DNA from: a virus
Lineage: Duplodnaviria; Heunggongvirae; Uroviricota; Caudoviricetes
Direction: 5' to 3' (one strand)
Virus record (IMG/VR): IMGVR_UViG_2579778919_000010
Length of the DNA: 36,679 nt
Shown here: positions 1 through 33,069 of the stretch, in pieces
How positions within the stretch are numbered: position 1 is the stretch's first letter
Layout: the number at the start of each line of letters is the position of its first letter
The notes under the pieces: model-generated
Told to the model about the DNA's origin: nothing
Database searches by the model: none
The model's input: only the letters and a program-made list of their open reading frames with translations
Program-made: the position numbers and the translations under genes

Positions 1-231
1 ATGAGTGAAGGACCAGGCGGGCCACAGGGAGCGACCGCAGGCGGTACGCTGGCAATGCGAATGCTGTCACAGCAGGCGATGGTCGCCAGCCAGATGAAAC
101 GGGCAGCCAACGACAAAGCCATTGCACAGATGTTGGCATCAAAAAAGTCTGGCCCCCCCGCCGCCAGGCTGGGTGCCGCGCGCCAATCAAAACGCGACAC
201 ATTGACAACTAACATTGGATCGCGTTTGTGA
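1..231 (+). pseudogene. 5' part of a gene split by the prophage insertion. Codons 1-57 are native; the last 19 codons (174..231) are read out of the prophage terminus until a stop
   Basis: ORF is open from the ATG at 1 (an upstream frame ends with TGA at 2-4, giving an ATGA overlap) and crosses the inferred junction at 173/174. Joined to 33070..33832 it reads ...SGPPAARLG/DEIQHKSFLGALAGAVLGAIV..., recreating AARxxDxxxH followed by hydrophobic helices. An internal ATG at 130 would put the motif at residues 11-20. Confidence 0.6.
169..173. repeat. Target-site duplication CTGGG, copy next to the prophage right (R) end
   Basis: CTGGG at 169-173 directly precedes TG at 174; the same pentamer is at 33065-33069 directly after CA at 33063-33064. 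Mu-type transposition makes 5-bp duplications. Confidence 0.6.
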
Positions 232-238
232 TCATGAT
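174..238. promoter_or_regulatory. Prophage right-end (attR-like) terminal region, probable transposase-binding sites
   Basis: TGCCGCGCGCCAATCAAAACGCGACACATTGACAAC... begins with TG and shares the AAAACGCGA core with the recalled Mu R1 site (about 11 of 16 matches over one 16-nt stretch); lies between the terminus and the gin stop. Confidence 0.45.
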
Positions 239-793
239 TTATATGTCAGATGCTGGGAATCGTTTGTACAGAGTTGAGATTCCGACGTCATAAATTAGGG
301 CCACCCTCTGACGAGTTTCGCCAGCCGCTAACAATCTTCCAGCCTGCGCCCACTGTTCAGGTGTTAACTTAGGTCTTCGACCTCCCACGCGCCCCTCAGC
401 TCGCGCAGCAGCCAGACCTGCACGTGTACGTTCAACAATCAGTTCACGTTCCATCTCGGCCAATGCCCCCATAACATGAAAAAAGAAGCGCCCCATTGGC
501 GATGAAGTATCTATGCTGTCAGTCAGACTTTTAAAGTTGATACCTCGCTCGCGTAGTTCTTCCACCAGTCCAACCAGATGACGCATGCTGCGTCCGAGGC
601 GATCAAGCTTCCAGACCACGAGGGTGTCACCTTCAGATAGCGTTCTGAGTACCCGTTTTAGTCCGGGTCTGTCTGAGGTTCTGCCGCTTATCTTGTCTTC
701 AAAAATCAGCTCACATCCTGCACATTCCAGCGCATTACGCTGTAATGCCGTGTTCTGGTCATTTGTTGATACACGTACATAGCCAATAAGCAT
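239..793 (-). CDS. gin: Serine DNA invertase, Gin/Pin/Hin/Cin family
   Basis: Translation from MLIGYVRVSTNDQNT... with catalytic-serine motif YVRVS, GDTLVVWKLDRLGRS and C-terminal HTH (ALIYDVGISTLYKR). ORF track begins 12 codons upstream at 829; the conserved N-terminus argues for 793. Confidence 0.93.
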   Translation of the reverse strand: MLIGYVRVSTNDQNTALQRNALECAGCELIFEDKISGRTSDRPGLKRVLRTLSEGDTLVVWKLDRLGRSMRHLVGLVEELRERGINFKSLTDSIDTSSPMGRFFFHVMGALAEMERELIVERTRAGLAAARAEGRVGGRRPKLTPEQWAQAGRLLAAGETRQRVALIYDVGISTLYKRFPASDI

Positions 794-847
794 GGTTAAA
801 CTCACTTTAAATGGCGGGAATAATGCCATTTGAGCGACTAACGATCA

Positions 848-873
848 TTATCGAAAACGTTGGTTTAATTGGT
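848..873. repeat. gix/hix-like invertase crossover site A, next to gin
   Basis: TTATCGAAAACG-TT-GGTTTAATTGGT: left half matches the hix/gix half-site TTATCAAAAACC in 10 of 12 positions; about 55 bp upstream of the gin start; inverted relative to site B. Confidence 0.6.
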
Positions 874-1446
874 AAATCAAATCGTCGTAATCGTAGACCG
901 GCATCTGATGAACTGGACATGCTCATTGAAGGTCTTCAACAACGATCTACACATAAATGCTCAAAAATTCCGTTCGTTGATATCCTCAAATTTTCTGTGT
1001 GGTCATGTATGCGAATCGGTGAAGTATGCCGATTACGATGGGAGGATCTCGATCAGGAACAAAAATCCATACTCGTAAGAGACAGGAAAGATCCACGTAA
1101 AAAGGAAGGCAACCATATGAAAGTAGCCTTGCTTGGGGAAGCCTGGGATATCGTCCAACGACAACCCAAAAAATCAGAATTCATTTTTCCATATAACAGC
1201 ACTTCTGTTACTGCGGGATTCCAGAGGGTAAGAAGCAAATTAGGTATTAAAGATCTGCGATACCATGATTTGCGTAGAGAAGGGGCAAGTCGCTTATTTG
1301 AGGCTGGTTTTAGTATTGAGGAAGTCGCCCAGGTTACAGGGCATCGTTCATTAAACGTGCTATGGCAGGTATATACCGAACTGTATCCGAAATCTTTACA
1401 TAATCGTTTTGAAGAGCTCCAAAGGAGCAGAAATAAGACCTCTTGA
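862..1446 (+). pseudogene. Tyrosine recombinase catalytic-domain remnant (no N-terminal domain, no own start) in the alternate arm of the invertible segment
   Basis: MRIGEVCRLRWEDLD (box I-like), DLRYHDLRREGASRLFEAGFSIEEVAQVTGHRS (box II-like) and a conserved Y in LWQVYTELY. The ORF-track N-terminus 811-861 lies outside the segment over the gin promoter/site A and is discounted. Confidence 0.55.
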
Positions 1447-31837: not shown

Positions 31838-32073
31838 TATGCAACCTCTTTGACTGATACAGCTTCATAACGTGAGGGCCAAATATCTCTGGGGGTAAGC
31901 CCCAGAAACTCAGCAATAATTTTTTCCCCTTTCGGCCAGTGGTGGCGGAATACATTTCGTAATGTTGATTCCGCTAATCCGTTGCTTCTGGAGAGCTGAC
32001 TGGTAGTCATCCCACGTTTCCTAATCGCTGCTTTGATGTCTTCCGGGTGCCAGTCTTGGCTTTTGGTCATCAT
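31837..32073 (-). CDS. ner: Ner-like DNA-binding early regulator
   Basis: 78 aa; DWHPEDIKAAIRKRGMT...HHWPKGEKIIAEFLGLTPRDIWPSRY matches Mu Ner as recalled; stop overlaps the A start. Confidence 0.9.
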   Translation of the reverse strand: MMTKSQDWHPEDIKAAIRKRGMTTSQLSRSNGLAESTLRNVFRHHWPKGEKIIAEFLGLTPRDIWPSRYEAVSVKEVA

Positions 32074-32302
32074 TCTGCGATCCTTAAATGTTTACACGTT
32101 CAGGTCAGCAATATCGCTAACCACTACGAGTAAAGATTAGAACACAAAAGAACGAAAGTAAATACTTTTGCGTACTTTTATGGTTGATGAGGTTAACCAT
32201 GATATTTTATTTAAAATCAAATCGTTACTTGATTTTCCGTGGTTAATCACAAAAAAGTACCAGATGTATTTTTCAATAACACAGAAAAGTACGGTGAATG
32301 AT
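32074..32302. promoter_or_regulatory. Early operator / divergent promoter region between ner and c
   Basis: AT-rich; repeated TACTTTT / AAAGTA elements (cgaaagtaaatacttttgcgtacttttatgg, aaaagtaccag, gaaaagtacgg) resembling Mu repressor-binding repeats. Confidence 0.55.
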
Positions 32303-32767
32303 ATGGTTGATTTTAGTGAATGGGTGTCAGTTCAGGATTGTATTGGTCTACCAGGTTTCCCCAGTGGAGCGCCGAATGTCCGGCGGAAACTGGAACAACT
32401 TGTGAGTAATAATCCTAAGTTGAAACGTAAGAAGGCTAAATCGAAAGCATATGAATATCATGTATCGGTCTTGCCAGAAGAAACAAAGAAATTCTTGGGG
32501 GTAGAAGAGCGCTCAGTTATACCTGACTCAGCCTTATCGTCACCAAGCTCAACAGCTCGGGACCTATGGATAATGCTTTTCGACAACTTAACAGAGCGTC
32601 AAAAACAGTATGTTATTAAGGTTTTCATGCAAGGTGGGCTGAACGCTTTAATGCCGATGGTAGCTGATTTGGAAGCCAGTGCAGATAGAGAGATTTTTGA
32701 ACAACGTGATCCCAATGAACAGATTCAAGCCGCGCCGAAGCTGAGCACGCGAAATAAAGCTGGCTGA
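32303..32767 (+). CDS. c: Repressor c (Repc-like), with N-terminal DNA-binding domain paralogous to the transposase N-terminus
   Basis: DFSEWVSVQDCIGLPGFPSGAPNVRRKLEQL...AKSKAYEYHVSVLPEE parallels the A N-terminus DFWVTAKECVGICSFPNAEKNVRKHLESF...TKAFEYHISVLPPE. Start uncertain: 32168, 32264 and 32303 are all in frame; upstream candidates overlap operator-like repeats. Confidence 0.65.
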   Translation: MVDFSEWVSVQDCIGLPGFPSGAPNVRRKLEQLVSNNPKLKRKKAKSKAYEYHVSVLPEETKKFLGVEERSVIPDSALSSPSSTARDLWIMLFDNLTERQKQYVIKVFMQGGLNALMPMVADLEASADREIFEQRDPNEQIQAAPKLSTRNKAG

Positions 32768-33064
32768 TTGCAAAAGTGCTCAATTGGCTGGCTTTACCTT
32801 CGCACCTCCTGTGGGCATTTTAAGCTGAGTTTAAATCCCGTTAAACGCTTTGAAATTAACTGCTATACGATCCAAATCTATGTGACACTTAACTGGCTTC
32901 GCTATCGAATGATCCAAAATTGACGATATGCCAGATTTTCCACAAGTCGAGTAGCTTAACGTTGTGCGAAGCCTCACAACTCAAGCCTTCCTCCCGTTAA
33001 TTCCCATGAATTCCCGGTTATTCCCGGGTTCTCTGTTTGATCCATACATCACTGTCACTAGTCA
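32768..33064. promoter_or_regulatory. Prophage left-end (attL-like) terminal region
   Basis: Non-coding stretch between the c stop and the inferred CA terminus; contains three exactly 10-bp-phased ATTCCC repeats (33000, 33010, 33020) and GATCCAAA(T/A) repeats. Confidence 0.45.
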
Positions 33065-33069
33065 CTGGG
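33065..33069. repeat. Target-site duplication CTGGG, copy next to the prophage left (L) end
   Basis: Identical to 169-173; follows CA at 33063-33064. Confidence 0.6.

Follow-up and report, generated by a model that had tools for sequence, protein, structure and literature searches.

A Mu-like transposable prophage in an Rhs gene remnant of Escherichia coli: ends, target duplication and a chimeric invertible segment

The window analysed here is a stretch of 36,679 nucleotides from a tailed-phage record (IMGVR_UViG_2579778919_000010), in which an element of 32,891 bp (174..33064) lies between two stretches of E. coli host DNA (Table 1). The host locus is a remnant of an E. coli Rhs toxin gene, with cusS on one side and a DLP12-type prophage remnant at argU on the other. 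The element is collinear with phage Mu, in reverse, for 30 genes that include ner, A, B, kil, gam, gemA, mor, the head and tail genes, S and gin, and the triad D274/D339/E395 of its transposase aligns with D269/D336/E392 of Mu. The original prediction had described a complete Mu-order gene set on a reversed map: the order stands, as do the positions of the gin stop at 239 and the c stop at 32767, whereas 'complete' is slightly generous because the element has neither com/mom nor a separate C homologue, encodes a GH108 lysin, and has its second tail-fibre set replaced by foreign DNA. PHROG and Pfam scans of the unannotated open reading frames recovered no C activator, no com/mom and no notable cargo beyond families of unknown function; a single gene of the Mor/C family was recognised, with no separate C-type late activator.

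Table 1. Features of the window, from the left to the right host flank.
Feature	Position	Strand	Evidence
Left host flank: 5' part of Rhs-family ORF (remnant fragment), including left CTGGG (169-173)	1..173	+	100% match to the beginning of RHS repeat-associated genes of many E. coli
gin-proximal terminus (Mu attR equivalent), starts 5'-TG	174..238	+	Homology start in other copies
Mu R1-like candidate transposase site CGCGCCAATCAAAACGCGACAC, gin end	179-200		13/19 Mu consensus match
Gin-type serine DNA invertase, 184 aa, stop codon at 239	239..793	-	80% aa identity to Mu Gin; Pfam Resolvase + HTH_7; catalytic YVRVSTNDQ conserved
Left gix-like crossover site TTATCGAAAACG TT GGTTTAATTGGT	848..873	.	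Sequence read
Captured foreign DNA: 3' two-thirds of tyrosine integrase gene + dinI, from dusA-integrating prophage type	855..1752	+	Pfam Phage_integrase, DinI
Fusion ORF: DinI without stop codon, in frame with C-terminal 94 aa of ClpP-like ORF (CX12 prophage)	1508..2038	+	Junction 1752/1753
Tail-fibre assembly protein (U equivalent), 130 aa	2198..2590	-	Pfam Caudo_TAP; 2 aa differences from LR536431 prophage protein
Tail-fibre protein (S equivalent), 322 aa	2590..3558	-	3558-3232 aligned with Mu S residues 1-113
Right gix-like crossover site, reverse complement CTCTCACAAACC TT GGTTTGGGAGAT, inverted relative to 848-873	3238..3263	.	Sequence read
Contractile tail/baseplate: gp48, gp47, gp46, gp45, P, N, tape measure, gp41, tube (M), sheath (L), gp38 homologues	3558..13040	-	Collinear tblastn to Mu, 25-43% aa; RefSeq of 99.98% identical EC09 copy; Pfam DNA_circ_N
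Head/packaging: gp37-like, G, gp36-like, major head T, protease I, F, portal, large terminase, gp27	13021..21870	-	Mu tblastn; EC09 RefSeq annotation; Pfam Mu-like_gpT, Portal_Mu, Phage_Mu_F, Terminase_6N, Phage_Mu_Gp27
Late small and lysis genes: gp26, gp25 homologues, TraR zinc finger, GH108 endolysin (24533-25123), gp18 homologue, others	21860..25543	-	Mu matches, RefSeq, PHROG/Pfam
Semi-essential early/middle region: Mor (25548-25955), GemA, 218-aa protein, Gam (27203-27730), small ORFs, gp9-like, Kil-like	25548..28816	-	Mu matches; Pfam
MuB-type AAA+ target-capture ATPase, 312 aa, downstream of transposase	28821..29759	-	47% aa identity to Mu B; Pfam Phage-MuB_C + AAA_22; Walker A GNPGVGKT
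MuA-type DDE transposase, 660 aa	29855..31837	-	52% aa identity to Mu A, full length; Pfam HTH_Tnp_Mu_1, HTH_Tnp_Mu_2, DDE_2 (E 9e-112), Mu-transpos_C
Ner-like early regulator, 78 aa	31837..32073	-	51% aa identity to Mu Ner; Pfam HTH_35
c-type lysogeny repressor, 199 aa, divergent from ner-A-B, stop at 32767	32168..32767	+	Pfam HTH_Tnp_Mu_1, 34.5 bits vs cut-off 23.3
c-proximal terminus (Mu attL equivalent), ends ...CA-3'	32768..33064	-	Homology end in other copies; three-way alignment of diverged c ends
Right copy of 5-bp target duplication CTGGG	33065..33069	+	Sequence read; empty site
Right host flank: Rhs-family fragment continued, in frame with 1-173	33070..33691	+	Relatives' uninterrupted locus

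The element shares with Mu (NC_000929), D108 and SfMu (genus Muvirus) the gene order (first c, ner, A and B, then the head and tail genes, then S and gin), and with Mu itself the TG...CA termini, the 5-bp duplication, the NYSRN target preference, the MuA domain architecture and DDE triad, MuB, Gam, Mor, GemA and Gin; the Mu attR matches the gin-side end in register over the R1 site. It differs from Mu in its size (32.9 kb vs 36.7 kb), in its protein sequences, which apart from Gin are 21-67% identical, in the distance of only 65 bp between the end of gin and the terminus, in its lysin, in the absence of com/mom, in having only one gene of the Mor/C family, in a repressor without BLAST-level similarity to Mu c, and in a c end that has no Mu A-site consensus and aligns to attL only at an offset of 16-17 bp. 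Megablast searches with positions 1-12000 and 26000-33400 returned no Mu, D108 or SfMu record. Genera of tailed phages are delineated in ICTV practice by a nucleotide similarity threshold of about 70%. Judged from its sequence, the element would not belong to the genus Muvirus in the strict sense, as its genome-wide nucleotide similarity falls short of that level. The only phage records with megablast similarity are Vibrio Mu-like phages (martha 12B12 and the 1.028.O group), in which stretches of 350-440 bp in the transposase gene are about 73-75% similar; these phages are compact as well (31.6-33.3 kb), but they infect another host and their transposases are only 45-47% identical at the amino acid level, below the value for Mu. 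No close isolated phage was found by DNA or transposase protein search, the transposase being at most 51% identical to that of any isolated phage, and a literature search for a description of the lineage returned only general papers on Mu-like prophages.

At the left boundary, CTGGG (169-173) directly adjoins TG at 174-175, and at the right boundary CA (33063-33064) is followed by CTGGG (33065-33069). By itself, this repeat is not significant because, with 18 TG sites to the left of gin and 39 CA sites to the right of c, about 0.69 pairs of the form NNNNN-TG...CA-NNNNN are expected by chance, and exactly one was found; it becomes decisive only in combination with the empty site and five other insertions. 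The empty-site string predicted by removal of the element and one CTGGG, GCCGCCAGGCTGGGCGATGAAATTC, is present verbatim in E. coli 7/2. In E. coli LR536431, window positions 1-173 joined to 33070-36679 match an uninterrupted site at 3783 of 3783 positions, without mismatches, and this site also reads GCCGCCAGGCTGGGCGATGAAATTC. Both genomes contain a single CTGGG there, with the left flank contiguous with 33070 onward, so the comparison with relatives lacking the insertion that the original prediction had proposed gave the anticipated junction, 173/33070, and bore out the 5-bp duplication.

The same or a closely related prophage was found at five other chromosomal sites, and all five copies end at the same TG and CA. 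The copies in EC09, ECONIH4 and CAVP776 are 99.9-100% identical to the element, and those in ECONIH5 and LR536431 are related (98% at the gin end and about 77% at the c end). Homology at the gin end begins at 174 (at 173 in copies whose flank has a terminal G by chance), and homology at the c end stops exactly at 33064, which bears out the earlier claim that the TG and CA are the true ends. Each of the five copies is flanked by a 5-bp duplication of its own (GCCAG, GCCAT, ACCGT, ACGGC and CCGGC), and all six duplications match NYSRN, the target consensus established in the Mu literature, with a chance expectation of (1/8)^6. The six loci (the Rhs fragment, yiiE/yiiF, a lambdoid tail gene, a DUF932 gene, narX/narL and a second Rhs gene) have flanks that are unrelated to one another. 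On sequence comparison, the exact ends and the 5-bp duplication are confirmed by the uninterrupted site together with the five other insertions, and we conclude, with a probability of about 0.97, that 174-33064 is a Mu-like transposable prophage that was inserted by DDE transposition into a leftover N-terminal Rhs fragment. Biologically, this prophage is ordinary, being a fresh member of a kind that is already known.

The element encodes two families of recombinases through which it could, in principle, have integrated site-specifically, namely the tyrosine integrase of ORF 811-1446 and the serine recombinase of 239-793. Such a mode of integration is extremely improbable considering that the integrase is a 5'-truncated foreign fragment (99.8% identical to the int gene of a dusA prophage) that is absent from the sister copies, that the serine recombinase is a close homologue of Mu Gin and lies beside an invertible segment, and that insertion at six different sites without a common att core, each with a 5-bp duplication, is the signature of Mu-type transposition. 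By analogy with Mu, transposition of the prophage would involve binding of the transposase to repeated sites in both ends, those in the c end having diverged from the Mu consensus, nicking 3' of each terminal CA, and joining of the ends to target strands staggered by 5 bp at a target chosen with MuB; gap filling, by repair after infection or by replication during lytic growth, would then produce the duplication. On the same model, the repressor would hold ner-A-B off in lysogeny, and derepression would lead to replicative transposition and headful packaging from the c end with variable host DNA.

The two ends differ in their resemblance to Mu. Compared in register with the Mu R end, the gin end shows 18/30 identity (permutation p ~4e-4), with AAAACGCGA at offsets 16-24 in both. 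A scan with the Mu A-site consensus, which recovers Mu's own sites, also recovers the R1-like site in the window: this match covers offsets 6-27 in the gin end, where R1 lies in Mu, and only 44 equally good matches occur in ~65.8 kb of scanned positions. The resemblance of the 174 end to the Mu R end, which the original prediction had pointed out, is thereby upheld. The gin end additionally contains an inverted pair, AAACGCGA/TCGCGTTT, and a TTGGATC motif at 215-221; two further TTGGATC motifs are found in the c end (32869-32875 and 32911-32917), such that the motif is enriched in the ends, which contain three of the five copies in the window, all pointing inward. In the c end, the scan found no convincing Mu A-site match, the best one (12/19) being at an uninformative position. 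Similar to the CCGGGAGG/GGGAT region of Mu attL, this end has GGGAA repeats in phase (32987-33027), and conserved blocks emerge when three diverged c ends are aligned. Between the two ends, there is no shared terminal inverted repeat beyond TG and scattered 7-8-mers, and their in-register identity is 12/30, compared with 14/30 for Mu's own ends.

Terminus alignment, which the original prediction had named as a way of locating the ends elsewhere, turned out to be misleading. Local alignments of the 90-bp ends to Mu attL and attR are barely above shuffles, and the approach, which works in register at the gin end, misplaces the c end by 16-17 bp; we abandoned it and relied on the junctions instead. 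The best alignment of the c end to attL, with 18/40 and 16/40 identity, is obtained with a shift of 16-17 bp, at TGTATGGATCA, yet the junctions put the end at 33064. Taken at face value, the shifted alignment would mean that the true c-side end is the inner TGTATGGATCA, which ends at 33048 and is similar to the Mu attL terminus TGTATTGATTCA, and that the outer 16 bp and the CTGGG are coincidental, as could be suggested by the presence of AACCGGGA in near register and by the chance expectation of ~0.7 for a 5-bp repeat pair. The shift signal is weak once the 12 tested shifts are allowed for, and the 16 bp in question (TCACTGTCACTAGTCA, or its variant in LR536431) are kept in all six insertions, with divergence only past the outer CA, which the 5-bp duplications abut in all six; furthermore, the empty site joins 173 to 33070 exactly. 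The 16 bp are not host DNA, the flanks of the other copies being unrelated, and the junction comparison refutes placement of the end at TGTATGGATCA, leaving this alternative with a negligible probability.

The invertible segment of the window copy is chimeric, with one gene set swapped for a truncated integrase gene and dinI that are joined to the phage at an invertase crossover site. The sister copies carry what defines an invertible switch: a serine invertase beside a segment that has inverted 26-bp crossover sites at its borders and contains two alternative tail-fibre C-termini together with their assembly genes. In the window copy, the invertase is intact and a pair of gix-like sites lies in inverted orientation, their TT/AA cores matching, but one of the sites is a hybrid and the second gene set is foreign. 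The constant N-terminal part of the S equivalent is encoded by 3252-3558 and its variable part lies within the segment; the tail-fibre set is 96.8% identical in nucleotide sequence to the LR536431 set, and the AAACCAAGGTTT core of the right site is also present in the tail-fibre genes of the CX12 and H10407 prophages. The left site (848-873) is phage-derived in its left half, with foreign integrase DNA beyond the TT core on the right: the sequence is ...AAAACGTT|GGTTTGGGAGAA in the EC09 copy and CTTAAACTT|GGTTTAATTGG in the native integrase gene, and the window sequence changes partner inside the common TTGGTTT. The captured stretch, 855-1752, is 99.8% identical to the int-dinI region beside dusA in ETEC H10407 and 97.7% identical to phage mEp460. 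It ends in a fusion ORF that is annotated as a 176-aa gene in the source assembly, GCA_000482045.1, contig ATJZ01000037.1, at a junction (1752/1753) with neither a crossover site nor microhomology. After inversion, the tail fibre of the window copy would be fused to the integrase fragment.

Recombination by Cin, Gin and Pin at quasi-crossover sites is known, for example at the quasi-cix sites of P1 Cin. The present case is similar in that the foreign DNA joins the phage exactly at the gix-like crossover core, opposite which the donor integrase gene has a partly palindromic pseudo-site, and differs in that the other junction, 1752/1753, has no site or microhomology. The parallel with quasi-site recombination is drawn from a single junction, and no reciprocal product was observed.

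Copies in unrelated strains are nearly identical (7 base differences over 29.8 kb between the EC09 and window copies) and 42 reading frames are intact, which suggests that the lineage was recently mobile. The sister prophages, which share the termini and the gene set with the window copy according to RefSeq annotation, occupy other insertion sites with other duplications and have a normal two-set invertible segment in place of the int'-dinI-clpP' DNA; their lengths, from match coordinates, are 32,356 bp (EC09), 32,316 bp (CAVP776) and 34,858 bp (ECONIH4). Even with the ends and origin as described, the window copy itself might have become grounded, no longer capable of forming infective particles or of transposing, considering that its alternative tail-fibre set has been replaced and one gix half-site is foreign, that a C-type late activator and com/mom were not recognised, and that the insertion is found in one assembly only. 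We consider this unlikely: none of the 42 CDS mapped from EC09 is disrupted in the window copy, and they differ by 3 amino acids in total, the catalytic motifs of the transposase, MuB and Gin are conserved, S and U are intact in the present orientation and ~97% identical to those of the LR536431 prophage, and the sister copies also lack com/mom and C, yet have evidently moved. Neither the ends nor the mode of insertion is affected by the divergence of the c end, the damaged invertible segment and the lack of a recognised separate C.

Beyond transposition into the Rhs fragment, we tentatively put forward a broader proposal, which we regard as possible although the odds do not favour it. The lineage might be an uncultivated, recently active, genus-level relative of Mu in E. 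coli whose c end has an architecture unlike that of Mu, extending ~16 bp outside the attL-homologous terminus, and/or the invertase of the window copy might have recombined with a quasi-site in the integrase gene of another prophage. If the former is the case, the terminal transposase site would be differently placed or different; the latter would represent a natural example of invertase-driven gene capture that brought int'-dinI DNA into an invertible segment.

No phenotype is expected from the insertion because the target gene fragment was already truncated before it occurred. For a Mu-like lineage without an isolated representative, the analysis provides boundaries that are exact to the base and an empty site that has been validated. 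Prophage finders that rely on integrases and att sites often put the ends of Mu-like elements in the wrong place, which is why boundaries of this kind help prophage annotation. The chimeric segment is a small natural illustration of exchange between prophages via invertase sites, and the six natural insertions show that a transposase only about half identical to MuA retains both the 5-bp duplication and the NYSRN preference known from Mu.

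Direct reading of the window places the 5-bp sequence CTGGG on both sides of a 32,891-bp element that starts with TG and ends with CA, with every coordinate as originally predicted (see the table), and joining the two flanks at the proposed junction keeps the host reading frame from base 1 in phase with the sequence from 33070. Because gin has 18 TG sites on its left and the repressor gene 39 CA sites on its right, chance alone should yield about 0.69 NNNNN-TG...CA-NNNNN pairs; with one observed, the CTGGG repeat by itself is weak evidence for the ends.

Positions of the prophage termini, the chimeric segment and the flanking host features in the window
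Feature	Position	Remark
CTGGG, left copy	169-173
Terminal TG	174-175	gin-side end
ACATTGGAT	212-220	offsets 39-47
TTGGATC near ends	215-221, 32869-32875, 32911-32917	inward
Replaced S'v/U' set	848-2120
int-dinI	855-1752
TT core of left gix-like site	860-861
DinI/ClpP-like fusion ORF	1508-2038 (+)	176 aa
Part of ClpP-like ORF	1753-2120
TGTATGGATCA	33037-33047
TCACTGTCACTAGTCA	33049-33064	terminal 16 bp of c end
Terminal CA	33063-33064	c-side end
CTGGG, right copy	33065-33069
Rhs/DLP12-type remnant junction	33691/33692
DLP12-type remnant	33692-36679	DUF1317, adenine methyltransferase, TraR, DUF4222, intD (ends at 36679)

Of the 5426 complete E. coli genomes, 2182 contain window positions 1-173, where they form the beginning of Rhs-family genes, and strain 7/2 reads ...GCCGCCAGGCTGGGCGATGAAATTC... 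at the uninterrupted site, exactly the string predicted for the empty site. The comparison with related genomes proposed as a check gave a perfect match in LR536431, where 1-173 is joined to 33070-36679 with a single CTGGG (3783 of 3783 bases identical) in the same local context, namely cusS, a DcrB-like fragment and an 804-bp N-terminal piece of an Rhs gene, beyond which lie a DLP12-type remnant that extends between DUF1317 and intD, and tRNA-Arg. Thus, the insertion target was a gene remnant truncated before the arrival of the phage. In the window, the phage likewise landed in an Rhs-family ORF of which only the 804-bp N-terminal remnant is left, joined to the DLP12-type prophage remnant that adjoins tRNA-Arg; this junction is identical in LR536431, and most of the DLP12-type remnant is common to 120 genomes.

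The right end of the prophage matches three other genomes at 99.8-99.9%, with the alignments stopping at window position 33064 and host homologues starting at 33065, and the left end matches five genomes, from 174 onward. Each of the six known insertions has its own target and 5-bp duplication: the Rhs N-terminal fragment in the window (CTGGG), the region between yiiF and yiiE in EC09 (GCCAG), a lambdoid tail-assembly gene in ECONIH4 (GCCAT), a DUF932 gene in CAVP776 (ACCGT), narX/narL in ECONIH5 (ACGGC) and a second Rhs gene in LR536431 (CCGGC). All six duplications fit NYSRN, the target consensus known from published work on Mu; the chance of six such fits is (1/8)^6. This comparison fixes both prophage ends to the base and shows that the element was inserted by transposition rather than by site-specific integration. 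The alternative c-side end at TGTATGGATCA, on which the original prediction would have failed, is ruled out: every copy has the 16 bp outside this motif, and the flanking sequences part from one another only past the outer CA.

Carriers of this lineage are rare (5 of the 5426 complete E. coli genomes), and the window's own insertion is known from one assembly only, GCA_000482045.1. The copies span 32,356 bp in EC09 and 32,316 bp in CAVP776; the ECONIH4 copy (NZ_CP026399.1 567446-602303, from match coordinates) is about 2 kb longer than these two and that in the window, at 34,858 bp. LR536431 has the empty site yet carries its own related prophage in another Rhs gene (3774.9-3807.1 kb); Rhs genes were thus hit by two of the six insertions, which may reflect either chance or a target bias.

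The originally noted resemblance of the 174 end to the right end of Mu is supported: 18 of the first 30 bases are identical to Mu attR in register (permutation p ~4e-4), AAAACGCGA occupies offsets 16-24 of both, and the Mu A-site consensus is matched at 13 of 19 positions at offsets 6-27, where R1 lies in Mu. The 9-mer ACATTGGAT occurs at the same offset in the gin end and in the opposite, c-side end of Mu, attL (Mu 39-47; in-register permutation p ~1e-4). The proposed alignment of the termini to those of Mu held in register for the gin end only. The c end does not convincingly fit the Mu consensus, and its best alignment to attL involves a 16-17 bp shift, with TGTATGGATCA against TGTATTGATTCA and AACCGGGA about 30 bp further in, a signal that is weak after counting the shifts tried. 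The terminal TCACTGTCACTAGTCA lies outside the attL-aligning stretch, the Mu-like TGTATGGATCA starting only after it; it is phage DNA because it is kept in all copies. Alignment of three diverged c ends revealed conservation of phased repeats of the GGGAA type and of blocks that contain GATC. Three of the five TTGGATC motifs in the window, which contain Dam GATC sites, are within 200 bp of the prophage ends, and an ATGGATC variant is found near the c terminus. These repeats, blocks and motifs are candidate transposase or packaging elements, and the TTGGATC motifs may be part of end-binding sites.

A tblastn search with the 54 proteins of Mu yielded 30 collinear matches on the minus strand, comprising early proteins (ner, A at 52% and B at 47% amino acid identity, kil, gp9, gam, gemA, mor and gp18), packaging and head proteins (gp26, gp27, large terminase, portal, F, I, T and G), tail and baseplate proteins (gp38, sheath, tube, gp41, N, P and gp45-48), and the N-terminus of S and gin (80%). 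Pfam domains include four MuA domains, MuB_C with an AAA domain, Gam, Mor, GemA, Portal_Mu, Mu F, gpT, gp27, DNA_circ_N, a Ner-type HTH, and the Mu DNA-binding domain in a divergently transcribed 199-aa repressor, which BLAST does not find similar to Mu c. Also conserved are the DDE triad of the transposase, the Walker A motif of MuB and the catalytic serine motif of Gin. Mapping the EC09 copy onto the window by its RefSeq annotation gave 42 CDS, every one of them open in the window, and the window copy departs from that of EC09 at 7 positions in 29,832 bp. The Mu gene order is as predicted, although calling the set complete slightly overstates it: com and mom were not found among the tblastn or domain matches in the window, where the gin stop is 65 bp from the terminus, nor were a Mu-type lysin, in place of which there is a GH108 enzyme, or a second Mor/C-family activator.

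The window copy has a chimeric invertible tail-fibre segment. The sister copies carry, after gin, two inverted gix-like sites that enclose the fibre and assembly genes S'v, U', U and Sv. In the window copy, what lies to the right of the left site's TT core is instead a tyrosine integrase gene, in its 3' part, with dinI, such that the S'v/U' set is replaced by this 5'-truncated integrase, dinI and part of a ClpP-like ORF. The int-dinI portion is 99.8% identical to that of dusA-integrated prophages, e.g. in ETEC H10407, and the ClpP-like portion matches the CX12 prophage at 94% identity. A shared TTGGTTT that holds the TT crossover core contains the left junction, and invertase-catalysed exchange is plausible here because a partly palindromic pseudo-site, CTTAAAC TT GGTTTAA, is found at this position in the native integrase gene. 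At the 1752/1753 junction, where no microhomology was detected, dinI runs in frame into the tail of the ClpP-like ORF; the resulting ORF, DinI without its stop codon plus the last 94 aa of the ClpP-like protein, was found in a single assembly, GCA_000482045.1, in the collections searched. The set now oriented for expression, Sv-U, is intact. By frame arithmetic, inversion via 860-862 and 3249-3251 would create an in-frame fusion between the constant part of S and the integrase fragment, an outcome with a one-in-three chance of arising by accident; a phage with the inverted segment would probably lack a working fibre.

Both the observation and the interpretation in the original prediction are correct: the termini, the duplication, the target pattern and the protein machinery with intact catalytic motifs are directly evident, and the comparison suggests that the lineage was mobile recently. 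By analogy with Mu, a transpososome would assemble on the end sites and nick 3' of each terminal CA, and strand transfer into MuB-bound target with a 5-bp stagger would be followed by repair or replication that makes the duplication; the ner-A-B operon would be controlled by the c repressor, and lytic growth would proceed via replicative transposition, with headful packaging from the c end. The only DNA-level similarity in the phage collection is with Mu-like phages of Vibrio and covers about 400 bp of their transposase gene, and the best transposase matches among isolated phages (SfMu, D108 and Mu) are at 51%; therefore, the prophage is Mu-like in mechanism and layout, yet lies outside the genus Muvirus. 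The element type is already well understood; the lineage is a new addition to the Mu-like phages, and no new type of system is involved.
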